This document shows positions 7,812 through 34,330 of a stretch of 64,000 nucleotides of DNA, piece after piece; position 1 is the stretch's first letter, and every line of letters begins with the position of its first letter. Source of the stretch: Alphaproteobacteria bacterium (lineage in GTDB: Bacteria; Pseudomonadota; Alphaproteobacteria; UBA828); NCBI GenBank assembly GCA_965214705.1, contig OZ243972.1:352001-416000 (forward strand), written 5' to 3'. The notes under the pieces are model-generated. The model ran no database searches. It was not told where the DNA came from and was given only the letters and a program-made list of their open reading frames with translations. Both the position numbers and the translations under genes were made by a program.

Positions 7812-8468
7812 TCAGGGAGAAAGGATTGCTTCGAAGGCGTCCTCGCGCTGGAGCGCGAAGTGCCGGGTTGCCGAGGCGACGCTGTCGAAGTCGGTCTTGT
7901 GGATGATGAGCGCGATCGCGATGTTGGTGCAGAGCGCGTTGTTCTCGGGCGCGAACCCGGTGCGCGCGAGGCAGGCGTCCTCGGCGAAGAGCTTGTCCCT
8001 GACGTGGTGGTTGACCTCGACGGACCAGTGGCCGCGGTTCCAGGCGAGAAGGTCCTGTGGCGAGGCGCGCTCTGCCGGCACCGAGGTGATGCCGTAGGCG
8101 TGCTCGATGCTGGTCTCGCCTGTGCCGTTGCGCCGTGCGTCGGTGCGCTTGCGGGTGACGCGGAACATCTGCGCGACATGAGGGTAGTTGATCAGGCCTG
8201 GAAGCGGGGTCAGGGTCTCGATGCGGCGTTGCTCGATGCGGCCATGGGCCTTGGCGACATCTTCCTCGAAGTGTCCGCTCGCGTCGCGCTCCCAGTCGAT
8301 GGAGGCGAGGGTCTCGCAGGTCTCGGGCGCGTTTTCCTTGACCGTCATGAGATAGTCGGCGCCGTGGGTTTCCTTGATGGTGCGCGCGGTGTCGCGGGTG
8401 GTGTCGCGGGTGGTGTCGCGGGTGGTGTCGCGGGTGGTGTCGCGGGTGGTGTCGCGGGTGGTGTGCAC
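7812..8468 (-). pseudogene. ISAs1 transposase, C-terminal half
   Basis: GADYLMTVKEN, HGRIEQR, RGHWSVE..HHVRD..F.ED; joins in frame to 30341-31548 at DALH|TTRDT. Confidence 0.88.
8388..8464. repeat. Tandem repeat (GGTGTCGCGGGT)x6 plus GGTGT at an element junction
   Basis: Six exact 12-bp units, encoding (TRDT)6. Confidence 0.95.
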
Positions 8469-8498
8469 TAAATAACGCTATTGCTTAGTGCACGGGGG

Positions 8499-8896
8499 CT
8501 GACGCAGGGTTGCAGTTTCCTCCTTTATTAAAGTTATACTACAAAAGGTTATGTCTCAAGTCAAGGGTGATTGGAGCGGGGACGTAGGACACATTGGCTG
8601 ATCCTGTGTCTCTCGGCAGTTGCATTCAGGGGAGCCGGCAAGTGGAATTCGTCGTGGAGTAGTGATCTGGTGGCTGTTGCGGGATCGGATCATTCGGTCA
8701 GGACACAAGTATGGCACAGGTTCTTGTGTGCGAGGAATGTCATAGGAGTTTCGTGATCTATTCTACATGCAGGGGTAGCCCCGTGTCCCGGTTGCAGCAG
8801 GTTCCTACGGGCGGCTGGGCCGCGATGAGGGAGGATACCGGCGGACGCCGCCAGCGCGCGATCATGGCCACCGATGCCGAGTGGGAGCGGAGTGCG
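8499..8896 (+). repeat. Conserved ~400-bp distal end of the element with a truncated RHH gene start (copy 1)
   Basis: Diverged direct repeat of 13481-13874; shared blocks TGACGCAGGGTTGC, ACACATTGGC, CGTGTCCCGGTTGCAGCAGG, MRED..GRRQRA.MATDAEWER. Confidence 0.8.
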
Positions 8897-8934
8897 AGAC
8901 AATCCCGCCGCTACCGTGGACTAATTTCTCACCG

Positions 8935-9234
8935 CCGTTCACACTGTCGCGCCTGCTGAACGGCAAGGCGGGCGTATCGGCGAACATGGCCTTGGCGCTG
9001 GAGGATATCGGCTGGGGAACCGCCGAGCACTGGATGCGGATGCAGGCGAGCTACGAGCTTGCACAGGCGCGCCGCAACCGAGCCGTTGTCGAACGCCGCG
9101 CTGGCGCGCTTCAAGCTTGCCCGAGCGTCGTGCCAGCACTGCCGGACAGGGAGTTGTCCCGCATGCCGCCGGTCATCCGCTTCCTGACAACGGCAGGCTG
9201 CGACACGCCGCGCACCACGCGCGGCGCCGCCTGA
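8935..9234 (+). pseudogene. higA: HigA-type antitoxin (HTH-XRE) fragment lacking its N-terminus
   Basis: TLSRLLNGKAGVSANMALALEDIGWGTAEHWMRMQASYELAQAR. Confidence 0.7.
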
Positions 9235-9314
9235 TGCGCCTGTCGTGGAACGAGGTCCGCCCGAAATCTTGGTGAGCAATTTCCGGACCTTCGAGCTTCA
9301 CGATCTTGACTCGC

Positions 9315-9426: not shown

Positions 9427-10209
9427 ATGCCGATTTACGAGAAAACCGTCAAGGAGCTGATGCACGAGTTCGCGGCCCAGGAATTGGGGCCAGGGAAGGT
9501 CTTCTCTCGTAAAGATGCGATTCGCTGGTTTGCCGAGCACTATCCGAGAATCAAGAGCAACACCGTCGGGTTGCATGTGGACGGCATGTCGGTGAACAAT
9601 TTTACTCAACGTCGGCACAGCCCCCAGATAAAGCCGGACAAGGACTGGGACCTGTTCTACAAGGAGGGCCCGCGCGAATTTCGCTTATGGGATCGCGAGA
9701 ACGATCCAGACCCCCGCTACAAGACCGATCTTGATGCAGATATTGGAGGAAGCGTTGCCAGGGCGGACGATATTGCCGGAGAGACCTCTGAGGAAGACGA
9801 CCCCGGTTCGCGCAAGTTCGCGTTCGAGCGGGACCTTCAGAACTATCTCGTGCAAAATCTCGGACTTTTGGAACCCGGCCTGAAGCTCTACGAAGACGAG
9901 GACGGAGAATTCACCGGCGTCGAGTTTCCCGCAGGCCAGCGCCGCATAGACATTCTCGCGGTCGGTGGCGACAGCGCCTACGTGGTGATCGAGACCAAGG
10001 TGTCCCGCGCCTACGACCGAGTCGTAGGTCAGGTTCTCCGGTATATGGGCTGGATTAAGGAAAACCTCGCTGGCGATGCGCCGGTCAGGGGCGTTATCGT
10101 CGCCAGCGAGATTTCGGAGGACCTCATTCTGGCAACTTCCTCCGTCGAGAACATTAGGCTCGTTGAGTACGAAATTTCTTTCTCCCTTAAATCCGTTTTC
10201 GGGCAATGA
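9427..10209 (+). CDS. PD-(D/E)xK endonuclease, NucS/DUF91-like C-terminal domain with an N-terminal putative DNA-binding domain
   Basis: AGGAG RBS; FAFERDLQNYL, RRIDILA, VVIETK, VVGQVLRYMGW. Confidence 0.75.
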   Translation: MPIYEKTVKELMHEFAAQELGPGKVFSRKDAIRWFAEHYPRIKSNTVGLHVDGMSVNNFTQRRHSPQIKPDKDWDLFYKEGPREFRLWDRENDPDPRYKTDLDADIGGSVARADDIAGETSEEDDPGSRKFAFERDLQNYLVQNLGLLEPGLKLYEDEDGEFTGVEFPAGQRRIDILAVGGDSAYVVIETKVSRAYDRVVGQVLRYMGWIKENLAGDAPVRGVIVASEISEDLILATSSVENIRLVEYEISFSLKSVFGQ

Positions 10210-10580: not shown

Positions 10581-11397
10581 TCAGTGGGACGAACTGGCCT
10601 CATTGCCACCGATAGCCCGCGCGATGGCCGCGCCGACGCGTTCTGCCGCCGCCTCGATCTCCCAGTCCCCGACATGGGCGTATCGTAGCGTCATGCTCGG
10701 GCGCTTGTGGCCGAGCAGGCGGGAGACGACCGGCAGCGGGATGCCCCGCAGCACGGCATGGCTGGCAAACGTATGACGAAGGTCATGCAGGCGCACGTCC
10801 TCGATCCCCGCTTCCCCGCGCACCGAGTACCAGAGCCTCAGATCGCACGAGAACGGCCGCCCGGGGTTCGACGGCGAGGGGAAGACATACGCGCACCCGG
10901 ATCGTGGTTGCCGTTCCAGGATGGCGCGGGCCGGCGCGTTCAGGAAGACCCGTCTCGGCCCGGTCTTGGTGTCGCTCAAATTGAGCGTGTCCTCGTCCAC
11001 ATCCTGCCAGCGAAGGGTCCGGATCTCGCTCTTCCGGCAGCCGGTCAGTAAGAGAAGGCGGATGATGTCCGCCTGTCGAGCGTGTGAGGCCCGCGCGTCG
11101 GCGTAGCGGTCCAGCACGCGGTGAAGGCGGCGGATCTCCTCGCGCGACAGAAAACGAGTGAGTTTCGGGCGGGGGTTGCGCTTGATGCCACGCGCCGGGT
11201 TCGTCTGGAGATGGCCGTAACCGGCCGCATGGTTCAGGATCTGGCGAAGCAGGCTCAGCGCGCGATTGGCCCCGCCGGGCGCGGACCGGCTATACTCGTC
11301 GAACCAGCGGGTCACGCCGGCCCGGGTGATCCGGTCCAGGGGCAACGCCCCGAACGCTGGAAGCAAGTGTGCTCTCAGGATCCAGGCTGCGGTCTTT
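10581..11397 (-). pseudogene. Outer-element intB, C-terminal part (3 of 3)
   Basis: LLLLTGCRKSEI, HDLRH, LLGH, RYAH; joins 13167-13446 once the IS110 is removed. Confidence 0.85.
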
Positions 11398-11562
11398 GCC
11401 GTGAAACAGATTCCGGCGAGGCACGCGTGGTGACGGTCCAACCCGCGAGTTGTGCGGAGTTGGCTGAGATCGCCGGCGTCGGCGCGGCAGTGACGAGCGG
11501 TGGACTTCCCCGATGTGGCCCGAAGCCGGTCCCGCGTAGCCGACAGGCGTGATGCAGGCTGC

Positions 11563-12813
11563 TCAGGCGACCTTGAGTTCCGCGTCCACGGGCTCGATGT
11601 AGCCGTAGCGGCGGAGCATGCGGATCCACCGAGGGGCGTTGCGCTTGACCATCAGCGCGTCGTAGTCGGCCGTGCGGTCGTAGTAGGGCCTGCCGGTCTT
11701 GAGGACGACATAGATGATGCGCAGCATCTTGTGTGCGCCGGCGACGATGGCGCGCTTGTAGCCGCGCCGGGCGGCGAGGGCGCGGTGGTGAGCCTCGAAC
11801 TGGCACCCCTTGGTTCGGGCCGCGCCGTGGGCACACTCGACGAGGCAGGCGCGCAGGGTCTTGGAACCCATGCGGGTGCGCGCGTTGCGGCGCTTGCCGC
11901 CACTTTCGTTGTTGCCGGGGCAGAGGCCGGCCCAGGCGGCGAAGTGCTCCTTGGAGGCGAACGCCTCGATATCGGGGCCGATCTCGATCAGGATCGTGGA
12001 CGCGGCGATGCGGTCGATGCCGGGGATGGTGGTCAGCAGGCGGAGCTGCTCCTCCCACGGGGTCATCTGCCCGTCGATCTTCTTGGTGTAGGACGCGATG
12101 CGCGCCTCGAGTGCGTCGTGCTCCTCCAGAAGATCGTTGAGCATGAAGCGATCGTTGTCGCCCAGGCTCAGGGAGAGCGCCTCGCCGAGCCCCTCCAGCT
12201 TGTTCGCGACGTGGCGGGTGAGGGAGGCGAGGATGACCTCCCGCTCCGTGCCTTGAGCCAGGCCGTCGAGGATCTTGCGGCCGTTGACGCCGAAGACATC
12301 GGAGATGATGCCGCCGATGCGCGCACCGGCACGGTCGATGATCTTCTGCACACGGTTGCGAACGGTGGAGCGCTGCCTGACCAGGACGCGGCGCTGGCGG
12401 CTCAGAGCGCGCAGCTCCCGGAACGGCTCAGGCGGAACATGGGACGGCGTGCAGAGCCCGAACTGGCACACACAGGCCAGCCACACGCTGTCGGCCACAT
12501 CGGTCTTGCGCCCCTTCAACTGCTTCACCTGGCGCGCGTGCACCAGGATCGCCTCGATCCCGGCCGCCTCCAGGGCCGCGAAGGGCGCCTGCCAGTAGAC
12601 CCCGGTCCCCTCCATGACCGCAGCCTCGACGCCGTGAGCGGTCAGCCATGCGACCATCTCCTCCAGACCGCTCGGCAGCGTGCTGAAGCAGCGCGTCTCC
12701 ACCACCGGCTCGCCCTCGCCCTCGCAGAGGCGAACCGTCGCGGTGATCTCCATCTTGTGCACGTCCAGACCCGCCGCGCGCGGCCGGACGACGTGCAAGC
12801 CTTCCGTCTTCAT
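11563..12813 (-). CDS. IS110-family DEDD recombinase/transposase
   Basis: AGLDVHK, VMEGTGVYW, GRKTDVAD, TIPGI, AWAGLCPGNNESGGK; GAGGAGG RBS before the ATG at 12813. Confidence 0.93.
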   Translation of the reverse strand: MKTEGLHVVRPRAAGLDVHKMEITATVRLCEGEGEPVVETRCFSTLPSGLEEMVAWLTAHGVEAAVMEGTGVYWQAPFAALEAAGIEAILVHARQVKQLKGRKTDVADSVWLACVCQFGLCTPSHVPPEPFRELRALSRQRRVLVRQRSTVRNRVQKIIDRAGARIGGIISDVFGVNGRKILDGLAQGTEREVILASLTRHVANKLEGLGEALSLSLGDNDRFMLNDLLEEHDALEARIASYTKKIDGQMTPWEEQLRLLTTIPGIDRIAASTILIEIGPDIEAFASKEHFAAWAGLCPGNNESGGKRRNARTRMGSKTLRACLVECAHGAARTKGCQFEAHHRALAARRGYKRAIVAGAHKMLRIIYVVLKTGRPYYDRTADYDALMVKRNAPRWIRMLRRYGYIEPVDAELKVA

Positions 12814-12844
12814 CGCCTTCCTCCTCATTTGCGCTCTCGCCACG

Positions 12845-13085: not shown

Positions 13086-13166
13086 GTGCAGGCGTGAGAA
13101 AAACGTCAGCCCAAGCGCCCCTGTTTCATGCCACGGGGTGGCTCAGAACCGCGGGGACCATGACTG

Positions 13167-13446
13167 TTTTGTGTCGATGGTTTGCATCTGTCGAGACGCG
13201 CCCGCGCCGGACCTGCGGCGAATTCCGCGAAGGTCGGGACAGTTCCTCTTCTCGGCCTGCCGGACCGCGCTTCGGTCTCGACGGCGAGGCACTTGGCGCG
13301 CGCCTCCTCGACCCTCATCAACGCGGCAGACCCGAGCGTGATCCTGCGCGCGCCGCCCTCGCCCTTCCGGCAATAGACATAGCTCCGGTGCCCCGACGAC
13401 CGAACCCGCACGCCGAGACCGGTCTGGCGCGTGTCCCAGACGGTGT
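13167..13446 (-). pseudogene. Outer-element intB, middle part (2 of 3)
   Basis: TVWDTRQTGLGVRVRSSGHRSYVYCRKGEGGARRITLG, arm-binding domain. Confidence 0.85.
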
Positions 13447-13480
13447 GCACTACCTAAAGCGAACTGTTCGCGAACGAACC

Positions 13481-13874
13481 GTGACGCAGGGTTGCTCTTT
13501 CCTCCTGTATATGACTGACGCTACAGTGAGTTAGGATTCTTGTCAAGGGCGGATTGGGCGGAGATGGAGAACACATTGGCAAATCTTGTGTCTCTCAGGA
13601 GTTGCACGCGGGGAAGTGGGTTGTGGATATTGACGTAGAGCGCTGGTATGGCTTTTATCATGAATTGGGGGCTCTGCGAGGACACAATGGCGGCATATAC
13701 TATCGCTCACGAGGAATGCCATAGGATTTTGGTGACATATTCCTCGTCCTCACGAAGCCACGTGTCCCGGTTGCAGCAGGTCCCTACGGGCGGCTCGCCA
13801 CCATGAGGGAGGATGCCAGTGGGCGCCGCCAGCGCGCGGTCATGGCGACCGATGCGGAGTGGGAGCGGAGTGCG
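13481..13874 (+). repeat. Conserved ~400-bp distal end of the element (copy 2)
   Basis: Homologous to 8499-8896. Confidence 0.8.
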
Positions 13875-14059
13875 TCAGGCGAACTGGTGCGAGTGCAGTT
13901 GGTGAAAGTCTAACAGGAAGGAGAAGGTGAGCCACCACTTCCACCCCGAGTCATGGGCCGTTGTTCGCGAGGGCGAGGGTCAAGCGTTGACAGGGGCGCG
14001 TGTGGGCGGGGCTATTGAGCACCGAAAGAAAAACATCATCCGGGATGCCGAGGCTCTTT
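13870..14059 (+). ncRNA. Group II intron 5' fragment (domain I only)
   Basis: Starts GTGCG; GTGAAAGTC, CCCCGAGTCATG, AAGCGTTGACAGGGG, TATTGAGC.CCGAAA and TCCGGGATGCCGA resemble bacterial group II intron domain I; no RT gene or domains V/VI seen. Confidence 0.65.
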
Positions 14060-14267
14060 GCCGTGAAAATGCCCTCGGGTTCGGCACAAACACTCCCGCG
14101 CGACGCCGGTGTGCTGCTCCGGGGTCGCCGGGTATCCGCGACGAACGGTGCTCCTCTTATGAGGACTGCGACCGGTAGGCTACCCCGATGTGGTCCGAAG
14201 TCCGTCCGCGCGACGGGCACCGATTTTCATTCTACGGGGTGGTCCAGCACGGCGTCGACCATGATCG
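14060..14267 (-). mobile_element. Non-autonomous IS110-derived mini-element (~208 bp), copy 2
   Basis: Same ends and internal motif as 4012-4215; TTT on both flanks. Confidence 0.7.
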
Positions 14268-14579
14268 TTTCTTGACGGTGTAGGGGACGGTCAGCTTCCG
14301 TCCGCAGCGGCGGACTCGCCGTCCAGGCGGAGTGACGGGAGATTGTCGCGTGCGCGTGATGTGAGCCGAAGCCGTCGCGGCGCTTGAGCGACGAGCGACT
14401 CCCGTTCCCGACCGTGCACGCCTTGCTTCGTGATGTTCGAGGCGTTGCCTTCTCCGGAGCCATCTCGATAATGCCGGTCTTCAACGTTGCGCACGATCAC
14501 GGCACGGACGGCTTGCCGCCGCGATTGGTGTCGTGGCGGCCATGACGGCGATTTCTCCTGGAGCATCCGACGCTAAACC

Positions 14580-16070
14580 ATGCGGTGCGAACAGACCTGC
14601 CGGACGACCGACGAGGCGCCTGCCGAGGCGCCGCTGGTCGTCGATGTCGACGGCTCGCTGATCGGCGGCGATCTGCTGATCGAGGGGATCGCCCGGCTGC
14701 TCTCGGTCTCGCCGCTCAGCCTGTTCGCCCTGCCGTTCTGGCTGGCCGCCTCGATGGTGAGGGGACGCGCCGGGCTGAAACGCAGGATCGCGGAGGCGGT
14801 TCCGTTGCCGCCTGACACGCTGGCGTTGAACCCGGCCGTGCTGGAGGAGATCGCCGCGGCGCAGGCGGCGGGACGCGCGGTCTGGCTTGCCTCTGCCTCC
14901 GACGAACGCGCGGTGGCCCCGCTCGCCGAGACGGTGGGAGCGGCAGGCTGTCTTGCTTCGGACGGACGCACCAACCTGGCGGGCGAGGCCAAGGCGGCCG
15001 CTCTGGTCGCGCGCTTCGGCGAGGGCGGGTTCGATTACATCGGCAACGAGCGGCGCGATCTGGCGGTCTGGAAGCGGGGGCGACGGGCCATCGGGGTCGG
15101 TCTTTCGGCGGGCCTAGCGCGCAAGGTTCGGGCGCTGGACGGCGAGGCCCGGTTCCTGCCCGGGCTCGGCGGCGGTCCGCTCGACCGGTTCCGGGCGTTG
15201 CGGCCGCACCAGTGGATCAAGAACGTGCTGGTGTTCGTTCCCCTCGCGGCGGCGCACGAGACCGGCGCGGGGCCGTATCTGGTGGCCGCCGGGATGTTCG
15301 CGGCGCTGTCGGCCGTAGCATCGGGCACCTATCTGCTGAACGACCTGCTCGATCTCCCGCACGACCGCCGGCACCCGGTCAAGCGCCACCGCCCGATGGC
15401 TGCGGGGAGGGTGCCGCTGCTGCCGATGATCGGCATCGGCGCCGCGCTGGCGTCGGGCGGCCTCGCCCTGGCGTTCTGGCTGTCGACCGCGGCGGGGCTC
15501 TGGGTCCTTCTGTATCTGGCCGCGACCTGCGCCTACTCGCTGTCGCTGAAGCGCAAGACCTTCATCGACGTGGTGACCCTCGCCATGCTCTATGCGGTCC
15601 GTGTGCTGGCCGGCGCGGCGGCGGTGTCGGTCGCGCTGTCGCCCTGGCTGCTCGCCTTTTTCCTGTTCCTTTTCCTCGCCCTGGCCATCGTCAAGCGTCA
15701 GGGCGAGCTGCGCGCGCTGCTCGGGTCCGACCAGTCCGCGCCCAGCGGCCGGGCCTATCTTGCCGAGGATTTCCCCGTGATGGCGGCGCTGGGCGCGGCG
15801 AGCGGCGTGGCCTCGGTGGTGATTCTGACCCTCTACATCCAGAGCCCGGAGACGGGGGAGCGCTATGCCCGCCCGGAGCTCCTGTGGCTGATCTGCCCGC
15901 TGCTTCTCTACTGGCTGGGGCGCATGGCGCTCCTCGCCTGTCGCGGGGGGGGGGGGGGGGACTCAAAACGGGTACCGGGTAACGACGACCCGCTGATCTT
16001 CGCGCTGCGTGACCGGACGAGCTGGCTGACCGGCCTCGGCGTCCTGGCCGCGTTCGCGGCAGCCCTGTGA
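14580..16070 (+). CDS. UbiA-family polyprenyl-phosphate phosphoribosyltransferase with N-terminal HAD-like domain
   Basis: LVVDVDGSL (HAD-like), LRPHQWIKNVLVFVP, YLLNDLLD..HDRRHPVKRHRP; G16 tract at 15945-15960. Confidence 0.88.
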   Translation: MRCEQTCRTTDEAPAEAPLVVDVDGSLIGGDLLIEGIARLLSVSPLSLFALPFWLAASMVRGRAGLKRRIAEAVPLPPDTLALNPAVLEEIAAAQAAGRAVWLASASDERAVAPLAETVGAAGCLASDGRTNLAGEAKAAALVARFGEGGFDYIGNERRDLAVWKRGRRAIGVGLSAGLARKVRALDGEARFLPGLGGGPLDRFRALRPHQWIKNVLVFVPLAAAHETGAGPYLVAAGMFAALSAVASGTYLLNDLLDLPHDRRHPVKRHRPMAAGRVPLLPMIGIGAALASGGLALAFWLSTAAGLWVLLYLAATCAYSLSLKRKTFIDVVTLAMLYAVRVLAGAAAVSVALSPWLLAFFLFLFLALAIVKRQGELRALLGSDQSAPSGRAYLAEDFPVMAALGAASGVASVVILTLYIQSPETGERYARPELLWLICPLLLYWLGRMALLACRGGGGGDSKRVPGNDDPLIFALRDRTSWLTGLGVLAAFAAAL

Positions 16071-16077
16071 CGCGCGC

Positions 16078-16491
16078 ATGGTGCCGCCCGCGTCTCTCGG
16101 CCTGCGCTACGCCGCCTTCGCCGCGGCCGCGACGGCGGTCAACGCCGCAACCCAGTATATCGGCAGCACCCTGTACACGGGCCGCTACGAGCTGTACGCG
16201 GCCATGGCGGCGGGAACGCTTGCCGGGCTGATCGCCAAGTACGTCCTCGACCGCCGCTGGATCTTCCATGACCGGCCCGCCTCGCCGCGCGGCCACGCGG
16301 TCAAGTTCACCCTCTATTCGCTGACGGGCGTCCTGACGACCGTCATCTTCTGGGGCACCGAGCTTGCGTTCGCAGCGCTGGGCGATGCGCCCTGGCTGCG
16401 CTACGCCGGCGCCGTCCTCGGGCTCGCCGTCGGCTACACCGCGAAGTACCGCCTCGACCGGCGCTTCGTCTTCCGGGAGCGGGCCGCATGA
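16078..16491 (+). CDS. GtrA-family lipid-linked sugar flippase
   Basis: 137 aa, four hydrophobic helices, KYVLDRRWIF / KYRLDRRFVF. Confidence 0.85.
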   Translation: MVPPASLGLRYAAFAAAATAVNAATQYIGSTLYTGRYELYAAMAAGTLAGLIAKYVLDRRWIFHDRPASPRGHAVKFTLYSLTGVLTTVIFWGTELAFAALGDAPWLRYAGAVLGLAVGYTAKYRLDRRFVFRERAA

Positions 16492-17825: not shown

Positions 17826-17851
17826 CCTCCCCTTCGAGAGAGAGGAACGAT

Positions 17852-24831: not shown

Positions 24832-24834
24832 GCG

Positions 24835-24961: not shown

Positions 24962-25051
24962 GTAAGCGGTATCGAGGCCCCATACTTCCAACGCATCTGA
25001 TTTCGCGGCTGACTCTTGGCCTTGGCAAGGAGCCTTGGAGGAGGCATCGCG

Positions 25052-25654
25052 ATGAAGGATTTGGATTTTCTGCGTGGCCACGAGTTCGGCGGTCACTCGG
25101 TCGAGGCGCGAGCGCCTGAAGAGGCCGCCCCATCTGCCGCAGCCCCATCTACGGCAACTGTTCCGGCTGATCACACTCGGCGGTCATGGTCCGCCGAGGA
25201 GAAGGCACGGATCGTCGCGGAGAGCGACAGGCCGGGAGTTGTGCAGAAGGAGGTCGCGGCTCGCCACGGCATCAGCGCACAAACTCTTCGTCAGTGGCGC
25301 AGTCGGTCAGCGGCTTCCGGGAAGCGGCGTGGCCGGCCTTGGCCGGCTGATGTGAAGGCGCGGATTGTTGCGGAGAGCGAGCGCCCGGATGCATCGATAT
25401 CGGCAGTTGCCCGCCGTCACGGCATCAGCGAGAAGACGCTGCGCACCTGGCGTCGCCAGGCGGCGAGTGACGCTGGTGGCGATCGGCAGGGAGCCGGGTC
25501 TTCGCCCCCCTATATTCCGGTTGTAGTTGACGGGTCTGCGTCCGAGCGGACGGTCGCGATTGAGGCGCTGGGCGTCGTCGTTCGCCTTCCGGTGGAGAGC
25601 GCGGTCGATCGGATCGTGGCTGTGGCCTCGGGCCTGGGTCGTGCGTCGTCATGA
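25052..25654 (+). CDS. tnpA: IS66 TnpA with two tandem HTH modules
   Basis: RRSWSAEEKARIVAES..VAARHGIS..WR and RPWPADVKARIVAES..VARRHGIS..WR. Confidence 0.8.
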   Translation: MKDLDFLRGHEFGGHSVEARAPEEAAPSAAAPSTATVPADHTRRSWSAEEKARIVAESDRPGVVQKEVAARHGISAQTLRQWRSRSAASGKRRGRPWPADVKARIVAESERPDASISAVARRHGISEKTLRTWRRQAASDAGGDRQGAGSSPPYIPVVVDGSASERTVAIEALGVVVRLPVESAVDRIVAVASGLGRASS

Positions 25655-26001
25655 TCGCGGTGCCCTCGCTTCGCATCGTGTTGGCGACGCGTCCGGTTGA
25701 TTTTCGTCGCGGCCACGACGCGCTTGCGGCGACGGCGGCGAGGGAGCTGGACCTCGATATCTATTCCGGGGTGATCGTGATCTTCCGCTCGCGCCGCGGG
25801 GACAGGCTCAAGCTTCTCACCTGGGACGGGACCGGTCTGGTGATGACCTACAAGCGTCTGGAGCAAGGCCGCTTCGCCTGGCCCCGGATCGAGGACGGTG
25901 TGATTCGCCTTACGAAGGGCCAGTTCGAGGCTCTCTTCGAGGGCCTCGACTGGCGCCGGGTGAAGGCCCGCCCGGTTCGCCGCCCGCTGGCGGCGGAGTG
26001 A
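25651..26001 (+). CDS. tnpB: IS66 accessory protein TnpB
   Basis: PVDFRRGHD, FRSRRGDRLKLL.WDGTG, KRLE.GRF.WP. Confidence 0.92.
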   Translation: MIAVPSLRIVLATRPVDFRRGHDALAATAARELDLDIYSGVIVIFRSRRGDRLKLLTWDGTGLVMTYKRLEQGRFAWPRIEDGVIRLTKGQFEALFEGLDWRRVKARPVRRPLAAE

Positions 26002-26094
26002 GGCGAGACGCAGGCGGGTCCGCAGATTTTTGTCGAGGTCCCGCCTGCACTTTTCCCTGGTCACGCATTGGCGAATCGGATTAAGGGATCGGCC

Positions 26095-27810
26095 ATGCCG
26101 AAGGTCACGCCCTCACCCCTCAGCAGCGCCGGTTCGCCGTCGCCTGCGGTGGTTTCGGCGGCGCTGGCGACCCTGCAGGCGGAGCTTGCCGAGGAGCGCG
26201 CGGCGCGCCGTGCGACCGAAGCAGCCCTATGCGAAGCGGAGCAGGCACGCGGCGCGGCGGAGGCGGCGAGGCAGACGGCGGAAGCGCGGGCGGCACGGCT
26301 GGAGGCCGAGAACGCGCACAGCGCGGAGCAGATCAGCCGGCTTGAGCATCTCAACAAGGAGCTCAGGAAGGCGCTGTTCGGTCCGCGCTCCGAGAAGCTC
26401 AACGAGGACGAGCGCCAGCTTACGTTCGAGGAGTTTTGGGCGGCGATCGCTGAAGCCGGCGGTCGGCCCGAGGCAGATGACCAGGAGCAGGACGAGGGGG
26501 CTGGCGGCAAGCGCCGGCGGCGCTCTTCCCGGGGGTCGCGCAGCGGGGTGCGCTTCGGGCCCCAGGTCGACCGGCGCGAGGAGGTGATCGAGCCGGACAC
26601 GATCATGTGCCCCTGCGGCTGCGGCGAGATGACGAAGATCGGCGAGGACCGCAGCGAGCGGCTGGACTATGAGCCGGCGAAGTTCACCGTCATCGAGACC
26701 GTGCGCCCCCGCTACGCCTGCAACAAGTGCAAGGGCGGCGGGGTGGTGCAGGCGTCGGCGCCCGCCTCTCTGGTGGAGGGCGGCCTTCCCACCGAGGCTC
26801 TTCTGGCGCAGGTGCTGATCGCGAAGTACGGCGATCATTGCCCGCTCTACCGTCAGTCGCAGATTTACGAGCGCTCGGGGATCGAGGTTCACCGTGCGAC
26901 GCTGGCGACGTGGGTGGGGCAGGCGTCGTTTCACCTGCGCCCCGTGGTCGCTTGCCTGAAGGATGAGCTGAAGAAGTCGGATCACCTGGGTCTGGACGAG
27001 ACCACGATCCGCGTTCTCGACCCGGGCCGGGGCAAGACGAAGACGGGCTACATGTGGACCCTTGTGCGCGACGAGCGCCACTGGAGCGGCGCCGACCCGC
27101 CGGGCGTTGTCTATCGCTATGAGCCCGGTCGCGGCGGCAAGTATGGCGCCAGGCTCTTGAAGGGCTTTTCGGGGACGGTGCAGCTCGACGCCTACTCGGG
27201 CCACAACATCCTGGCGCGGCCGGACCGGCCCGGCGGCCCCGTGACGCGGGCTCTGTGCTGGGCGCACGTCAGGCGCAAGCTGAAAGAGGTGTACGACTCG
27301 AGCGCCTCGCCGATCGCGCTGGCTGGCCTGAAGCGGATCGCGACGCTCTATGCGATCGAGGAGAAGATCCGGGGCGAGCCGCCGGCGACGCGTCAGGCGA
27401 TCCGCTGGGAGGAGTCGGCGCCGATCGTGAACGCCTTCGGTGTCTGGCTCGACGAACAGCGCTCGCGGGTCTCACCGCGCTCGCGTCTCGGCGAGAAGCT
27501 CACCTATATCGCCAACCAGTGGGACGGGCTGCTGGAGTTCCTGCACGACGGCCGCGTCGAGATCGACTCGAACCTGGTGGAAAACCGAATCCGCCCGCTG
27601 AAGCTCACCGCCAAGAATGCGCTCTTCGCCGGCAACGACGAGGGTGCGCAAGCCTGGGCCCGCATCGCATCGCTGATCGAGACCTGCAAGATGAACGGCG
27701 TCGAGCCTTACGCCTGGATGCGGAGCACGCTCGAGAAGATCGCCAAGGGTCACCCGCAGTCCAAAATCCAGGAACTGCTGCCGTGGAACTTCGAGCCCGA
27801 GACAAATTGA
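26095..27810 (+). CDS. tnpC: IS66 transposase TnpC
   Basis: FGPRSEK, KYGDHCPLYRQ, LDET, CWAHVRRK, IDSNLVENRIR. Confidence 0.93.
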   Translation: MPKVTPSPLSSAGSPSPAVVSAALATLQAELAEERAARRATEAALCEAEQARGAAEAARQTAEARAARLEAENAHSAEQISRLEHLNKELRKALFGPRSEKLNEDERQLTFEEFWAAIAEAGGRPEADDQEQDEGAGGKRRRRSSRGSRSGVRFGPQVDRREEVIEPDTIMCPCGCGEMTKIGEDRSERLDYEPAKFTVIETVRPRYACNKCKGGGVVQASAPASLVEGGLPTEALLAQVLIAKYGDHCPLYRQSQIYERSGIEVHRATLATWVGQASFHLRPVVACLKDELKKSDHLGLDETTIRVLDPGRGKTKTGYMWTLVRDERHWSGADPPGVVYRYEPGRGGKYGARLLKGFSGTVQLDAYSGHNILARPDRPGGPVTRALCWAHVRRKLKEVYDSSASPIALAGLKRIATLYAIEEKIRGEPPATRQAIRWEESAPIVNAFGVWLDEQRSRVSPRSRLGEKLTYIANQWDGLLEFLHDGRVEIDSNLVENRIRPLKLTAKNALFAGNDEGAQAWARIASLIETCKMNGVEPYAWMRSTLEKIAKGHPQSKIQELLPWNFEPETN

Positions 27811-27890
27811 CTCGCGCGCTCACGGCGCTCCTCAACAAGTCCCCCTCGTAGTCAACCCAGATTCCGGCATGGGGTCTGCGTAACGCTTAC

Positions 27891-28896
27891 GCACCGTCTC
27901 GCCCCGCACCAGGGCCGTGCTGGCGTACGTATGTCGAAGGTCGTGAAGGCGGACGTCGCACAGGTCCGCTTCCGCCCTCACGCGATGCCAAGACTTGCCG
28001 ACACCGACCGTGTGCAGGAAGCCGTCGGACCGCGGCGAGGGGAAGACCCAGACGGACGTGCGGGGCAGGCCGTCGAGGATTGCGCGCGCGGCGGACGAGA
28101 GCCAGACCGTGCGCGGACCGGTCTTGGAATCGGGCAGGAACAGCTTGCCCTCGCGGTAGAAAGACCACTTCAGGGTGACGATCTCGCTCTTGCGGCATCC
28201 GGTGAGCAGCAGCAGGCGAATGATCGCCACGGCCAGCGGCCGGTCGGCCTCGTGGCGTGCCAGCACGGCGCCCAGCCGGCGCATCTCCGCGGCCGACAGG
28301 AAGCGCTCCCGCCCCTGGCGGCGGTACCGCCTGATGCCCGCGCACGGGTTGGTCCCCTCGGTCCGGTAGCCGTAGACCTCGGCTTGGCGCATGATGACCG
28401 AGAGGACTGGGGCCGAGCGGTCCGCCGCCACCGGGGTCACGTGGAGGGAGGCGAACCAGCGCTGGACGTCGTGCGCGGTGATGTCGGCGATCGGGCGCCC
28501 TTCGAAGCAGGGCAAAATCTGGTTGCGGTAGTAGTAGCGGTTGACCTTGAGCGTCGATGGTTTCCAGTTTCGGGCATAGCGGTGGAAGACTTCATCGGCG
28601 ACCGTCTCGAACGGGATGTCCGGCGCCGCTGTGGCATCGCCGCCGTTGCCCTTGCGGACCGAGGCCACCAGGGTCCTGGCCCGGTCGCGGGCCTCGTCGG
28701 CGCCGATGGCCCCGGCCTGGCCGACGATCTTCCAGACCCGCCGGCCCTGGTGCTGGGTATGGACGAAGTAGCGTTTGGCGCCCGAGGGAAGGACCCTGAC
28801 GCCGAAGCCCTTGAGATCGCGGTCGCGCACGTCGTAGGCGGACTTGCGGGGCTTGAGCGCGTCGACGCGGTGTTCGTTGAGGCGAACCGTCGCCAT
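27891..28896 (-). pseudogene. Inner-element intA, N-terminal part
   Basis: LKGFGVRVLPSG arm domain, TGCRKSE, HDLRH; interrupted by IS66. Confidence 0.88.
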
Positions 28897-29013
28897 GAAA
28901 CTCCTCCTGCGTTCTGTTGCAGCCGGGGAAGAACGCGGACCGATTCCGCGTCTTCCGGGCTTGACAGGAGGAAAAAAGCAACGCTATGTCAGTGCATTAG
29001 AACCGAAGGTGCG

Positions 29014-29091
29014 CCAGACGGTGTACTCGCGGGCCATCGGCGCCAGCCGGGCCACGTTGGCGTCGGTCAGACGCCGCCTCTTCACGGCCAT
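29014..29091 (-). pseudogene. Outer-element intB, N-terminal part (1 of 3)
   Basis: MAVKRRRLTDANVARLAPMAREYTVW, broken at the inner-element junction. Confidence 0.85.
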
Positions 29092-29093
29092 GC

Positions 29094-30218
29094 CTAGCCC
29101 TCCAGGACGGCGCCGACGGTATCGACGGCCTCGAGCACTGTGAGGTCGGACATGTGTGTGTATTTCAGCGTCGTTGCCGGATCGCGGTGTCCGAGAAGAC
29201 GGCCGATCGTGAGCACCGTCTCACCCTGCGCGAGTGCCATGCTGGCGTACGAATGCCGCAGATCGTGAAGGCGGACGTCGCGCAGATCCGCTTCCGTTCT
29301 CACGCGACACCAGACCGCGCCGACTGCCCTTGCGCTCAGGAAGCCACCTGTTCTTGGCGAGGGGAAAACCCAGGCGGCTTCGCGGGGCAAGCCGTCCAGG
29401 ATTGCGCGCGCGGCGGACGACAGCCAGACCGTGCGCGGCCCGGACTTGCTGTCGGGCAGGAACAGCTTCCCCTCGCGGTAGAAGCGCCATTTCAGGGAGA
29501 TGACCTCGCCCTTGCGGCAGCCGGTCAGCAGCAGCAGGCGTATGATCGCCATGGCCTGAGGGCAGGCGGCTTCATGGCGTGCCAGCACATCGCCCAGACG
29601 GCGGAGTTCGGCGGTCGACAGGAAGCGCTCCCGCCCCTGGCGGCGGTATCGCCTGATGCCCGCGCACGGGTTGCTTCCCTCGGGCCGGTAGCCGTAGATC
29701 TCGGCCTGGCGCATGATGACGGACAGGACGGGAGCCGAGCGGTCCGCCGCCACCGGGGTCTCGTGAAGGGATGCGAACCAGTGCCGGACATCGCGGGCGG
29801 CGATGCCGGCGATCGGGCGTCCCTTGAACCAGGGCAGAATCTGGTTCCGGTAGTAGCCCTGGTTGACCTTGAGCGTCGACGGCTTCCAGTTCCGAGCGTA
29901 GCGCCGGAACACTTCGTCGCCGACCGTCTCGAACGGAGTGTCCGGCGGTGCTGCGGCTTCGTCGTCGTTGCCCTTGCGGATGGAGGCCACCAGGGTTCTG
30001 GCCCGTTCGCGGGCCTCGTCAACGCTGACGGAGCCGGCGCGGCCGACGATCTTCCAGACCCGCCGACCGTCGTGCTGAGCATGTACGAAGTAGCGCTTGG
30101 CGCCCGAGGGCAGGACCCTGACGCCGAAGCCCTTGAGATCGCGGTCACGGACATCGTAGGCGGCCTTGCGGGGCTTGAGCGCGTTGACACGGCGTTGGTT
30201 GAGGCGAACTCTTGCCAC
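29094..30218 (-). CDS. Tyrosine recombinase A of the outer element (intact)
   Basis: GGAGG RBS and GTG at 30218; arm domain; TGCR, HDLRH, LLGH, KYTH. Confidence 0.92.
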   Translation of the reverse strand: MARVRLNQRRVNALKPRKAAYDVRDRDLKGFGVRVLPSGAKRYFVHAQHDGRRVWKIVGRAGSVSVDEARERARTLVASIRKGNDDEAAAPPDTPFETVGDEVFRRYARNWKPSTLKVNQGYYRNQILPWFKGRPIAGIAARDVRHWFASLHETPVAADRSAPVLSVIMRQAEIYGYRPEGSNPCAGIRRYRRQGRERFLSTAELRRLGDVLARHEAACPQAMAIIRLLLLTGCRKGEVISLKWRFYREGKLFLPDSKSGPRTVWLSSAARAILDGLPREAAWVFPSPRTGGFLSARAVGAVWCRVRTEADLRDVRLHDLRHSYASMALAQGETVLTIGRLLGHRDPATTLKYTHMSDLTVLEAVDTVGAVLEG

Positions 30219-30340
30219 AGATATTCCTCCTGCATTCACTGTTGCGGCCGGGGCGAAAACACGGACCGGTTCCGTGTTCTTCGGCCGAATCAGGAGGAGA
30301 AATGCAACGCTATGTCAGTGTGTTAGAACCGCAGGTGCGC

Positions 30341-31548
30341 CGGGTGGTGTGAAGCGCGTCGATGGTGATCACGCGGCCTTCGACGGGAACCTCGTCCAGC
30401 AGTGCGCGCACGGCGGCGATCTCGCCGCCGTCGTCGTTGAAGGCGAGGCTCGCGAGCGGCGCGCCGGTTGCGTGGTCGACCAGGGTCGCGGTCTCGTGGT
30501 GGCCCTCGCCGTTGCGGTTGGCGCCGCGAATGCGCTTTCCGTCGAGCGCGATTGCACGGCCAAGGTTCAGTCTCGGCATCGAGAAGCGTTGCAGCGCCGC
30601 CTCGATCTGCTCGGGGTCGAGGGAGGCGATGACCCGGTGCAGGGTCGACTTCGAGACCGGCACGTAGAGGCCGGTCTTCGGGTTCTTCCAGGCGCCGAGC
30701 GCTTCCAGTTCCCGCTGCGCCAGCTTGCTCGCATACTCGGCGGCGGCGACGGGACCGCGCATGTTGGCGAGCCTTGCGAGGATATAGACCGCGAGCGTGG
30801 TTGCGACGCTGTGCTTGCGCCCCTGGCCGCGCCGGAAGTCCTCGATCCCGTCGAGTTCCTGGTAGAGCGAGCGCAGTTCGCTCGGCGCCCTGCCGGCGTG
30901 GCCCTTGGGCTCCCAGCTTGCGGGCAGCGGGCGGGGCGCGCTGAGCCGCCGGCGGGCATCGCGGCGCAGGGGATAGACATAGAGCCGCTTGGGCTCGCCG
31001 TGGGGGTCGGTGTAGCGGCCGTTGTGGCGGGCAAAGCCCCTGGTGTCGCCGAGATAATGCCAGTTGGCGGCCTCGTAGATCGTGCCCTCGAAGAGCGCCG
31101 GGTTCACGAAGGTCTCCGCGATCAGAATCGGATGCCCATAACAGGACTGCCAGTCGTCGCCGAGGCGGCGCAGCATCGCGGCGATCGCGAACGAGGCAAG
31201 ACACGGAAAGACGCGCTTCGCGCCGAGGATGACGAAGCGGGTGTTGTTCGCGATCAGATGCAGGCGCTGGAACTGCTGCGCCGCCGACCACCCGATCCAG
31301 CGGTCCCGGTGCCTGCTCTTGAAGGCGCCGGCCTGCCACCCGGCAAGCGCGATCCACAACCCGCACCATTCGACGATGTAGCGCAGGCCGCGTCCGGCGA
31401 AGCGCTTGAAGCCGAGGTAATGGTAACGCTCGACCGTCGCATCCCACTGCGCCCGTTCATGCGGCTCTGCGAGGCGGACCACGACATCGGCAAGCGAGAA
31501 GTCGGACGCGCGCTCGAAGAAGGGTCTGTCGTCCGCTCGGTGGCCCAT
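30341..31548 (-). pseudogene. DUF4338 (DruA-like)-ISAs1 transposase fusion, N-terminal part
   Basis: HYLG..GRGLRY, RDRWIGWS, IANNTRF, ETFV..GTIY.AANW (DUF4338); then IALDGK, GEI, ITIDALHT (ISAs1). Confidence 0.85.
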
Positions 31549-32056
31549 GCCGCCATCACTAATCGAACCGGCGGCGAAAAGCCAGAGAAAAGTGCAACTA
31601 CCTCGACTGGAAGCTCAAATCGTCAACAAAGCCTAGCGTGGGATGGCCCTGGCCAATTCCGACCGAGACACGCCTCAACTCACTGGCCCAAAATGACAAA
31701 TCAGACGACCTGGGCAGTTACTTCGGTTTGAGAATGAGGAGAGAGGTCAAACCAGATAATTGGAATGATAATAAAAGGTTAGTGAAGTGGGACGAAGATC
31801 TGCAAAGCGAGAATCAACACCATGGAAGCACAAGGCGCAAAAACCGTGGCAGGACGCCGACGTGGGTCGTCCATGCGCTACCGGCGAAAGCCTTCGGAGG
31901 TGGGATGGCGGGTCAGGGGAAAGCGCTACACCGTGCCACGCACCTACGGTGCTAACTATCTGACAAAGGGTCGTTTTCTCTCCCTCATCTTGTTGCATCC
32001 GGACCCATGGGGCAACCCCCTGTTCCCCGGCTGCAACCGCAACCGGGAGACCGCGA

Positions 32057-33178
32057 ATGACCAGACCCGCCCTCACCGACGCCCGCGTGAGCGCGCTCAA
32101 GCCCCGCAACGCCGCACGCGACCTCCGCGACGGCAAGCTGAAGGGCTTCGGCGTCCGTGTCCTGCCCTCGGGACGCAAGCGCTTCTTCGTCCACTGCCAG
32201 CACTGCGGCGAGCGGGTCTGGAAGATCATAGGCGACGCCGGCACCATGAGCGTGGAGAATGCGCGTTCGCGCGCACGCGAGACGCTCGCCGCCATCCGGC
32301 GGGGCGGGGACGCCCCCCGCGATCCCGCCGAGACCCTCTTCGAGGCCGTCGCCGAGACCGTGTTCGAGCGTCACCGGCGCCTCTGGAAGACCGGAACCCT
32401 CGAGGTCAACCGCTGCTACCTCAAGAACCAGATCCTGCCCCATTTCTCGGGACGGCAGATCGCCGACATCGACGGCAAGGACGTCCGGAGCTGGTTCGCC
32501 GCGCTCCGCGCCACCCCGGTCGCCGCCGACCGCTCGATGCCGGTGCTCTCCGTCATCATGCGCGAGGCCGAGGCGATGGGGCTCAGGCCCGAAGGCTCCA
32601 ACCCATGCCGGGGCATCCGCAGATATCGCCGCAAGGGGCGGGAACGCTTCCTGTCCGACGAGGAGATCCGCCGCCTGTCGGCGGTGCTCTCGGCCCGTGA
32701 GGAGCGGTGCCCGGAGAAGGTCGCGGTCGTCCGCCTTCTTCTGCTGACCGGATGCCGCAAGAGCGAGGTCCTGACGCTCCGCTGGTCCGACTACCGCGAG
32801 GGGCTTCTGTTCCTGCGCGATTCCAAGACCGGACCCAGAACCGTCTGGCTGTCCACACCTGCCCGCAAGGTGCTCAATGCGCTCCAGCGAAAGGGCCGCT
32901 GGGTCTTCCCGGCGCAGCAGGCCGGAGGGCCGCGCAGCAAGAGTTGGCTGAACCGGTTCTGGTACGGGGTTCGCGCCGAGGCCGGTCTTCGCGACGTCCG
33001 GCTCCACGATCTCCGCCACACCAACGCGACCCTCGCCCTGAAGGAAAACGTCCCCGTCCTCGCCATCGGCCGGCTGCTCGGTCACCGCAACGCGGAAACA
33101 ACGCTCAAATATACCCATCTCGCCGACGCCATGGTTGACGATGCCGCCGAGACCGTCGGGGCCGTGCTGGAGCGCTAA
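32057..33178 (+). CDS. Tyrosine recombinase A (third copy, intact)
   Basis: Homologous to 29094-30218; catalytic motifs intact. Confidence 0.92.
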   Translation: MTRPALTDARVSALKPRNAARDLRDGKLKGFGVRVLPSGRKRFFVHCQHCGERVWKIIGDAGTMSVENARSRARETLAAIRRGGDAPRDPAETLFEAVAETVFERHRRLWKTGTLEVNRCYLKNQILPHFSGRQIADIDGKDVRSWFAALRATPVAADRSMPVLSVIMREAEAMGLRPEGSNPCRGIRRYRRKGRERFLSDEEIRRLSAVLSAREERCPEKVAVVRLLLLTGCRKSEVLTLRWSDYREGLLFLRDSKTGPRTVWLSTPARKVLNALQRKGRWVFPAQQAGGPRSKSWLNRFWYGVRAEAGLRDVRLHDLRHTNATLALKENVPVLAIGRLLGHRNAETTLKYTHLADAMVDDAAETVGAVLER

Positions 33179-33181
33179 GCC

Positions 33182-34330
33182 ATGGCCGGCAAGCGCGTCA
33201 GGCTCAGCGACGCCGCCATCGCCCGCCTCCGGCCGCGCGAGCGGGAATATACCCTCTGGGACGACCGCGTCCCCGGCCTCGGCGTCCGGGTCCGGCCCAC
33301 CGGCGGGAAGACCTTCGTCCTCCTCGTCGATGACGGAGGCCGCTCCAGGCGGGTCTCCCTCGGGCCGGTCTCGACCATCGACGTCGCCGAGGCGCGCAGG
33401 CAGTGCCACGCGCGCAAGGCCGGTGGGGAGCCGGACGCGATTGCCCGCCCGGCGCGCACCGCCCCCCTGTTCCGCGACTTCGTCGAAGGCGAGTGGAAGG
33501 AGGCGCATTTCGGGGGGTACAAGCCATCGTCCCGCAGGACCGTGTCCAGTCTCCTCCGGGCTCGGCTCCTGCCCGCCTTCGGCGAGACGCCGCTCAACCG
33601 CATCGCCCCGGCCCGGGTCCGGCGATGGTTCGACGACTTCAGCCGCACCGCCCCCGGCAACGCCAACCATGCGCTCGGCCTGTTGCGCCGGATCATGAAC
33701 TACGCGATCGCCCGCGGCCATGTCGACGCCAACCCGGCACGCGGCATCAGGGACAACCCCAGGCCCAGGCTCACCCGCTTCCTGTCGCGCGAGGAGATCG
33801 CGCGGCTTCACGCCGTCCTCGACGAAGAGGCCGGGCGGGGCGAACGGTTCAGGCCGCAGGCCGACATCATCCGTCTTCTCCTGCTCACCGGGTGCCGCAG
33901 GGGAGAAATCGTCGGGCTCCGCTGGTCGGAGGTCCAGGGCGGCGCGCTGATGCTGGCCGACAGCAAGACGGGGCCGAAAAGGGTCCCGCTCAATACCCCG
34001 GCACGGCGCGTCCTCGAACGACAGCCGCGCGAGGGAAGCCCGTTCGTGTTCCCCTCGCCGCGCGACCCTTCGCGGCCGCGCGGCCATGGCATCGCGCTCT
34101 GGTACAGGGTCCGCCGGGAAGCCGGCATCGAAGATGTCCGCCTTCACGATCTTCGCCATACCGTCGCAAGCCATGCGGCGATCGCCGGCGTGCCCATCCC
34201 GGTCGTCGCCAGGCTGCTCGGGCACCGCCGCGTCGGCGCCACGCTGCGCTACGCCCATCTCGGAGACCGGGAGATCGAGCAGGCGGCCGAGAAGGTCGGG
34301 CAGTCCATCGGCGAGATGCTGAACATATAG
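33182..34330 (+). CDS. Tyrosine recombinase B (third copy, intact)
   Basis: Homologous to 23671-24831; catalytic motifs intact. Confidence 0.92.
   Translation: MAGKRVRLSDAAIARLRPREREYTLWDDRVPGLGVRVRPTGGKTFVLLVDDGGRSRRVSLGPVSTIDVAEARRQCHARKAGGEPDAIARPARTAPLFRDFVEGEWKEAHFGGYKPSSRRTVSSLLRARLLPAFGETPLNRIAPARVRRWFDDFSRTAPGNANHALGLLRRIMNYAIARGHVDANPARGIRDNPRPRLTRFLSREEIARLHAVLDEEAGRGERFRPQADIIRLLLLTGCRRGEIVGLRWSEVQGGALMLADSKTGPKRVPLNTPARRVLERQPREGSPFVFPSPRDPSRPRGHGIALWYRVRREAGIEDVRLHDLRHTVASHAAIAGVPIPVVARLLGHRRVGATLRYAHLGDREIEQAAEKVGQSIGEMLNI

Follow-up and report, generated by a model that had tools for sequence, protein, structure and literature searches.

Mobilizable transposons that carry a tandem duo of tyrosine-integrase genes have been described in Prevotella intermedia, in which MTnPi1-3 are found in 2-6 copies, carry a relaxase and a primase-family gene, and use an 11-bp attachment site (att) of the form TTAC-N5-AA (PMC4755523, PMC5704250; here and below, published systems are given as they stand in the available parts of the papers cited). 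They excise as circles, except for the copy MTnPi1-c, which lacks the second integrase and does not, and the authors suspect that both integrases are needed; in addition, the conjugative transposon CTnPi2-a lies in an integrase gene that may belong to a degraded transposon of this sort (PMC4755523). Such duo elements are barely characterised, as the available parts of the literature yielded one genomic description and no biochemistry. In this work, we focus on an alphaproteobacterial family of comparable design, three copies of which (E1, E2 and E3) lie in a nest of mobile DNA filling about 7.8-34.3 kb of the window, by which we mean the whole 64-kb stretch analysed (positions 352001-416000 of contig C1 of G000, a 7.92-Mb assembly with 67% G+C and three contigs, C1 to C3). 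The family is mobile and multicopy, it has two adjacent arm-domain tyrosine recombinases, IntA and IntB, as well as defined ends and an ACACC target, and it is found within one alphaproteobacterial genus.

We rate this family as one of a known but little-studied kind, that of the integrase-duo mobilizable transposons, a likeness drawn from the published descriptions. The sequence-only reading of the window had put it forward as a candidate undescribed type, and this is not supported, since multicopy mobilizable transposons with two tyrosine integrases and an 11-bp att had already been published as MTnPi1-3. The common points are the tandem integrase genes at one end, the relaxase module, the presence of several copies per genome, a short att at both boundaries, in which variable bases stand between a fixed motif and a dinucleotide, and a case of insertion into an integrase gene. 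The differences lie in the host (Bacteroidota there, Alphaproteobacteria here), in the integrases (without significant mutual similarity in MTnPi1-3, whereas IntA and IntB are paralogues, 36-39% identical, both with PF13356), in the motif (AT-rich instead of ACACC), in the copy number (2-6 against at least 35 here) and in the relaxase type (PMC4755523, PMC5704250).

Other described systems are more distant. CTnDOT and IntDOT also combine an arm-domain tyrosine recombinase with a short conserved motif beside a variable overlap, where only the bases next to the first cleavage site have to be identical, but there is a single integrase and the overlap is normally heterologous, so that the junctions differ, while here they are identical in most elements (PMC2817482). 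Tn554, SE, GInt and RIT are likewise prokaryotic mobile elements with more than one tyrosine recombinase; however, Tn554 encodes TnpA and TnpC together with a large TnpB, and its junctions show a 6-bp footprint of the previous site and no repeat, SE has an intA-tfp-intB order plus srap, while here intB follows 3 nt after intA with nothing between, and GInt has four genes (ginABCD) and RIT three recombinases, against two adjacent genes of equal size here (PMC10214605). The present family does not fit Tn554, since its proteins are of 373-386 aa, a repeat is present and no third conserved gene was seen adjoining the pair, no search having been aimed at TnpC. The CTnPg1 family has a similarly degenerate short attachment site with variable centre bases (TTTTCNNNNAAAA), but it is conjugative and has a single integrase type (PMC4755523). 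BIM elements, which have one recombinase and an SMC-like protein, were also considered and set aside as not belonging to the IntA/IntB family. In the available parts of the literature searched, including PMC8138268, no alphaproteobacterial ACACC element is named.

All six recombinase genes or gene fragments of the window match the Phage_integrase catalytic family. The full-length IntA and IntB carry PF13356 (P4-type, arm-binding), PF22022 or PF14659 (central) and PF00589 (catalytic), and the catalytic R, K, H-x-x-R, H and Y are invariant in an alignment of eight proteins; this is the build of a heterobivalent integrase, with an N-terminal arm-binding domain, a core-binding domain and a catalytic domain bearing R-K-H-R-H-Y. 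The two genes also travel together, as 25 of the 33 full-length intA-like loci in G000 have an intB-like gene directly after them, with a 3-nt gap. Among the matches listed, relatives of at least 57% identity are found in 16 genomes out of the 20 that represent the rest of the genus, while the remaining four, and the genomes outside the genus, give matches of 40-47% only. Distant tandem IntA-like/IntB-like pairs (36-41% identity) are found on Sphingomonadales plasmids of Polymorphobacter, Aurantiacibacter and Novosphingobium, where the pair is kept in four of the five loci inspected. The tandem pairs (L075 at 3753-3790, L076, L077 and L078) are each preceded by ACACC[CG]TAC[GA]C, and in two of the plasmid loci toxin-antitoxin genes follow the pair. 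Judged from these sequences, the plasmid pairs are possible distant members of the family in cultured strains, and they offer a route to experiments. In G000 itself, adjacent tyrosine recombinase pairs about 40% identical to IntA were also observed on C2 (33008-35311, 681658-683951, 538300-540608, 603358-605666 and 472784-475075), and these may form a second paired family.

The ends of the family are well defined. A regular-expression search over the whole 7.92-Mb genome returned 35 proximal ends. ACACC stands before 33 of them and ACACG before the other two, always at positions -11 to -7, and the base directly before the terminal CGCACC is a purine (R) in 34 of the 35. Most of these ends sit in unrelated flanks. 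The distal ends form several sequence classes, and the 20 that were catalogued (18 in one genome-wide listing and two more) all finish with ...C/ACAC, after which host DNA follows. Both ends carry an imperfect subterminal inverted repeat, CTGAC..AG.GTTGC...TTTCCTCC, and ACACC and CGCACC, the two half-sites of the core, do not form an inverted repeat. Related loci in other genomes mostly have such ends too: at 53 of them, an end could be recognised in 45, with ACACC in 39, a one-letter variant in five and no motif in one. Empty sites exist as well, in the form of paralogous insertion sequence (IS) copies that run through the target with a single copy of the repeat, and one and the same IS is therefore present both with and without an element; for the element at C3 480174-509265, there are two empty paralogous sites, each with a single ACACCACGTC. 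The target had been proposed to be ACACC-N7-ACAC, a direct repeat with a 12-bp period, and this part has to be given up: the second ACAC is found 12 bp downstream in two of the 18 listed distal ends, both of them in the window, and it was rejected as a general part of the target since it is absent from the other 16. The att has the layout of ACACC, three variable bases (N1-N3) and a lineage-specific dinucleotide (N4N5), which is found at both boundaries and at many target sites.

To examine the repeat flanking each element, every distal end was paired with the closest proximal end in the same orientation, and the repeat itself was ignored. The 17 pairs obtained have on average 0.82 mismatches in N1-N5, against 3.47 in random pairings (the lowest of 10,000 sets gave 2.29): nine are identical, four have one mismatch, two have two, and the last two are mis-pairings caused by nesting. 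The repeat is therefore imperfect in six of the 15 properly paired elements, with mismatches at N1, N2, N3 and sometimes N5, but never at N4, and this goes against the duplication of transposase style that had first been supposed. Elsewhere in the genus, a second genome contains two copies that are 99.8% identical over 7.2 kb and have ends reading AGCGA/AGAGA and CGAGA/CGGGA, and such copies are too young for the mismatches to be the product of mutational decay. Furthermore, in 23 pairs of copies with an identity of 96% or more over 2.3 kb, situated in different flanks, N4N5R never differs, while N1-N3 differ at 2.0 of 3 positions, against 2.18 in unrelated copies. This argues that N4N5R travels with the element and that the repeat common to both ends is 10 bp long (ACACC and N5), instead of the approximately 11 bp of the sequence-only reading, the eleventh base being an element-borne purine inherited with N4N5. 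Finally, two copies that are 100% identical over 7 kb have ACACCACGGC beside different flanks, and the same core is also found at two different distal flanks. The flanking 10-bp repeat would then be a core common to the element and its target, and not newly synthesised DNA. This recalls IntDOT and its two-base identity rule, with the difference that the remaining spacer bases usually match here too (PMC2817482).

We consider it probable, with real room for doubt, that IntA and IntB carry out conservative recombination at ACACC plus a spacer that largely matches the element's own, and that the family is an integrative mobilizable one. The element has the intA-intB pair at one end and, at the other, a conserved module followed in complete copies by mobilization genes. 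It would probably excise as a circle, the junction of which would read distal end-C / ACACC-N1N2N3-N4N5-R / CGCACC-proximal end, and its insertion would be a conservative, site-specific recombination that can use any ACACC as long as the spacer behind it matches that of the element. Identity at N4N5, which is specific to each lineage, would be effectively obligatory, while single mismatches in N1-N3 would be tolerated; a mismatched insertion could rewrite the spacer, so that the set of targets would drift and dozens of sites per genome could be reached. As for the enzymes, XerC and XerD offer a model: these paralogous tyrosine recombinases each bind half of the non-palindromic core of dif, and each exchanges one pair of strands. 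By analogy, IntA and IntB may act jointly on their non-palindromic core, one per half-site; the Xer proteins differ in that they have no arm domains and serve chromosome segregation.

Several points weigh against this account. G000 is a metagenome-type assembly with an estimated contamination of 8.7%. Only 15 elements could be paired end to end, from 20 distal and 35 proximal ends, so that the repeat statistics describe a subset of the copies. The group of the seven closest copies (96.7-98.6% identical) was not recovered in full: the 150-kb regions downstream of them are IS-ridden mosaics, and in the nearest-neighbour pairing two members have partners with one mismatch, one has a partner with two, and the rest have none; one candidate distal end consists of no more than the last 8 bp adjoining an IS. 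Recombination between copies may have scrambled some of the pairs; for example, the cores of C1 3381546/3377404 and C2 610228/640507 match better when crossed. Even copies with 99.7-100% identity over 2.3 kb have unrelated N1-N3; with an inherited spacer, mismatched hops would have to be very frequent, and yet most repeats are perfect. The joint action of IntA and IntB, their need for each other, their mutual binding and the circular intermediate are what we infer. Lastly, neither a circular junction nor an excised empty site was found in the assembled contigs of four public runs that were compared with the complete copy L055: contigs bridge both of its junctions and none joins the two ends, although contigs drop rare forms.

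Sites without an element also carry unusual sequences. Two element-free copies of the same IS were observed in G000, at C3 1309754 and C3 1727492; one has nine tandem ACACCACCCGCG units, and the other has two 25-bp pieces that match the tail of a distal end, with an internal ACACC, followed by three 12-bp units. This 25-bp scar with its units looks like the footprint of a past occupation or of recombinase action. One element also has an array of its own: its terminal 12 bp (TCATGTTTTGTC) are repeated seven times in tandem at C3 2760670-2760756, directly before the ACACC junction. We read the 12-bp arrays and the scar as unequal or aberrant exchanges at ACACC sites, a reading that leaves the recurring 12-bp period unaccounted for.

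A bolder version of the preferred account can be put forward tentatively, and we hold it more likely to be wrong than right. In it, the variable 3-5 bases would be a heritable, self-rewriting DNA guide, the target being set by base-pairing between the spacer of the element and the genome, and an insertion at a site with one mismatch could overwrite the guide. IntA and IntB would form an obligate heteromer on the non-palindromic core; when they act on host sites that hold no element, these enzymes would also produce the 12-bp arrays and the 25-bp scar as side effects. If this were true, a lineage would walk through sequence space, could reach dozens of sites and would behave like a transposon by conservative recombination only. 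More generally, if the spacer steers insertion, the family would constitute a naturally retargetable integrase pair, and this would account for the transposon-like expansion of a conservative recombinase and for the disruption of genes, including the integrase genes of sister copies. The family is in any case a large natural data set, with at least 35 copies in one genome and many more across the genus; among them are insertions within insertions and nearly identical copies at separate sites, and there are also empty sites and a scar. The target rules can be read from the copies: a fixed 5-bp motif, a dinucleotide that has to match that of the element, and three further bases, for which a match is usual but change is possible.

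Among the alternatives, the one that survives best, although we find it unlikely, is that integration and excision are the work of a single recombinase of the pair, while its partner has a separate job such as multimer resolution, the control of excision or the use of a second site; the two would then not make up a heteromeric machine. By its residues each protein is a complete enzyme, and one arm-domain integrase suffices for most integrative elements (PMC5704250). Under this alternative, one would not expect the adjacency and its 3-nt gap to be kept at 25 of 33 loci, nor the pair to be kept in four of five distant Sphingomonadales plasmid loci at 36-41% identity; the half-sites ACACC and CGCACC, not being mutual inverted copies, and the failure of MTnPi1-c to excise without its second integrase (PMC4755523) also speak against it.

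Two further alternatives concern the repeat, and we regard each of them as improbable. The first is true transposition with a target-site duplication, in which an element without a copy of ACACC-N5 would be inserted at a staggered cut of 10-11 bp and the gap then filled. The single copy of the repeat at empty paralogous sites, the perfect 10-bp repeats of nine of the 15 properly paired elements, and the unrelated N1-N3 of copies 99.7-100% identical, as if taken from each new target, are what such a process would give. It would not give the imperfect repeats of the other six pairs and of the two 99.8%-identical copies, which are too young for decay, nor the inheritance of N4N5R in 23 of 23 close pairs while N4N5 match the host side in most pairs, nor a full core common to identical copies at different sites. 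Strand exchange by tyrosine recombinases is conservative, without a gap that would have to be filled. Moreover, there is no conserved DDE or HUH transposase; minimal copies consist of intA, intB and small genes, and the only DDE genes inside the elements belong to separate IS insertions, which does not make a DDE transposon.

The second is a recombination like that of IntDOT or Tn916, indifferent to spacer homology beyond ACACC and N4N5, in which identical repeats would arise through mismatch correction of the heteroduplex. The identity at N4N5 combined with freely changing N1-N3 does parallel the two-base rule of IntDOT (PMC2817482), and the scar and the 12-bp arrays at ACACC sites with differing N5 suggest exchanges between heterologous spacers. 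However, N1-N3 at the two ends would then be expected to differ at about 2.2 of 3 positions, when nine of the 15 pairs are identical over the whole of N1-N5. Nor is a repair bias known that would turn both junctions into host sequence. As for ordinary site-specific islands multiplied by segmental duplication and not by their own insertion, the common flanks of some copies (three with a GACAAG core, three with a TTAACA-type core) go in that direction, but the idea is already contradicted by the unrelated flanks of most of the 35 proximal ends and by the coexistence of occupied and empty copies of the same IS, to which the nested insertions and the same architecture in different flanks in other genomes can be added, so that we give it next to no credit.

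Returning to the preferred account, conservative integration by a mobilizable family, the content of the elements is variable. The paired elements of G000 span 4.1-53.6 kb. In the complete copies, L055 (C3 909026-922929, 13.9 kb) and L054 (C2 554447-569962), a conserved module of 430-510 bp adjoins the distal end; beyond it, L055 has three NikA-like ribbon-helix-helix genes and a TrwC relaxase-helicase of 1592 aa, and L054 carries a NikA-like gene. Near-identical or related relaxase genes stand beside other distal ends, and of the 12 distal ends in one class, five have the NikA-like gene (120 aa) intact and five in truncated form, while it was not found at two. Because they carry NikA-like genes and a TrwC relaxase, the complete copies look like integrative mobilizable elements as far as gene content can tell. 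At the other extreme, a 2.5-kb copy in another metagenome-assembled genome (MAG) holds only intA and intB (L019, positions 1627-4130 of a 4.5-kb contig); it is flanked by ACACCATGG and lies inside the conserved RHT..ASH box of another recombinase gene. From about position 63136 of the window onward (C1 415136-419476), there is also a relaxase gene of TrwC-like type with 40-66% identity to that of L055, and no family end was seen near it in 60400-62260.

In the window, the family is represented by degraded, nested copies, E1 and E2, and by the proximal part of E3. E1 interrupts an ISAs1-like transposase gene, while the intact paralogues of this gene elsewhere run straight through, and E2 lies in the intB gene of E1. 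In the lines below, positions are those of the window, and a strand is given where it applies.

7812-8464, minus strand: host ISAs1-like transposase gene, C-terminal half (DDE_Tnp_1)
8388-8464, minus strand: 12-bp tandem array (ACACCACCCGCG, 6.4 copies) abutting the distal end of E1; intact IS copies have one unit
8455-8464, minus strand: distal copy of the 10-bp repeat of E1, ACACCACCCG, host side
8465-30340, minus strand: E1, the outer element, as read from its junctions; about 4.6 kb of its own DNA, the remainder being E2 and an IS110-family insertion
8499-8524: distal subterminal inverted-repeat arm of E1 (CTGACGCAGGGTTGCAGTTTCCTCCT on the plus strand), pairing with 30291-30318
8825-8959, plus strand: truncated NikA-like ribbon-helix-helix gene of E1, 44 aa (120 aa at full length in other copies)
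9427-10209, plus strand: E1 cargo, DUF7669 and a NucS_C-like nuclease-fold protein
10581-11441, minus strand: C-terminal piece of E1 intB (catalytic domain)
11563-12843, minus strand: IS110-family transposase, the insertion splitting E1 intB
13106-13446, minus strand: middle piece of E1 intB, which resumes ...TVWDTRQTGLGVRV...
13437-13446, minus strand: distal copy of the repeat of E2, ACACCGTCTG
13447-29014, minus strand: E2, the inner element, inside E1 intB; 15.6 kb including an IS66-family insertion
13481-13507: distal subterminal inverted-repeat arm of E2, read from the junction sequence
13803-13913, plus strand: truncated NikA-like gene of E2, 36 aa
14580-23443, plus strand: E2 cargo, UbiA prenyltransferase/HAD, GtrA, FAD-binding oxidase, large membrane protein and short-chain dehydrogenase
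23671-24831, minus strand: E2 intB, intact, 386 aa
24837-24961, minus strand: C-terminal remnant of E2 intA, 84% identical to 29096-29220
25016-27810, plus strand: IS66-family insertion splitting E2 intA (Orf2 at 25651-26001, transposase at 26068-27810)
27832-28896, minus strand: N-terminal part of E2 intA
28965-28992: proximal subterminal inverted-repeat arm of E2, read from the junction sequence
29015-29093, minus strand: N-terminal piece of E1 intB, up to E2; 29015-29024 doubles as the proximal repeat copy of E2
29094-30239, minus strand: E1 intA, intact, 381 aa
30291-30318: proximal subterminal inverted-repeat arm of E1, read from the junction sequence
30341-30350, minus strand: proximal copy of the 10-bp repeat of E1, ACACCACCCG, host side, with the element's own purine at base 30340
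30341-31548, minus strand: host ISAs1-like gene, N-terminal half (DruA-like and DDE_Tnp_1_assoc)
31928-31944, plus strand: proximal junction of E3, ACACC GTGCC A / CGCACC; E3 starts at 31938
32057-33178, plus strand: E3 intA, intact, 373 aa
33182-34330, plus strand: E3 intB, intact, 382 aa, starting 3 nt past the intA stop

The intA-intB pair is thus indeed present three times, as the sequence-only reading had it, though E1 intB is in three pieces because of E2 and the IS110-family insertion, and E2 intA is split by the IS66-family one. All the junctions that it had described were found in place. In gene orientation, the proximal junction of E1 reads ...CTTC ACACC ACCCG G / CGCACCTGCGGTTCTAA at 30340/30339, where the bases up to ACCCG are those of the host, and its distal junction reads ...TTTAGTGC / ACACC ACCCG C at 8465/8464. 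For E2, the proximal junction is ...GAGT ACACC GTCTG G / CGCACCTTCGGTTCTAA at 29014/29013 and the distal one ...GGTAGTGC / ACACC GTCTG G at 13447/13446. That of E3 is ACACC GTGCC A / CGCACCTACGGTGCTAA at 31938/31939; its distal end was not found, the sole match being a 9-mer 80.5 kb downstream that has no end-like context.

The insertion of an element into the intB of a sister element, which had been deduced from these junctions, is borne out: E2 is inserted after codon 26 of E1 intB, and the removal of E2 with one copy of the repeat restores ...REYTVWDT.... The removal of E1 gives a more mixed result, since ...DALHTTRDT... is restored in frame as had been stated, but six extra TTRD units remain, which correspond to the 12-bp array at 8388-8464; uninterrupted copies of the host IS read CTTC-ACACCACCCGCG-ACACCGCGCG. 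A cargo of 15-22 kb had also been proposed, a figure that does not fit the roughly 4.6 kb of E1's own DNA or the sizes of the paired elements and of the minimal copy given above. In both E1 and E2, the relaxase has been lost and the NikA-like gene is truncated. The interrupted IS gene itself consists of a DruA-like (Druantia) N-terminal region fused to DDE_Tnp_1_assoc and DDE_Tnp_1, and it has at least four near-full genomic copies elsewhere.

Several other observations were made on the mobile DNA of this genome. Another IS is present in about 25 copies in G000, 100% identical over 393 bp (e.g., C3 418610-419002), and one of these copies lies 8 bp inside a distal end of the family. The window also has a CRISPR-like array at 55677-56817, with 16 copies of a 35-37-bp repeat and spacers of 37-41 bp, which is the sole array of this repeat in the genome; a comparison of its spacers with the G000 genome gave no convincing match, the best being 28 bases at 93%. 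At 37326-39614, a tyrosine recombinase of the SAM_4 type is directly followed by an IS91-family Y2 transposase, and transposases of the IS5, IS66 and IS1595 families occupy much of the window between 34 and 58 kb.

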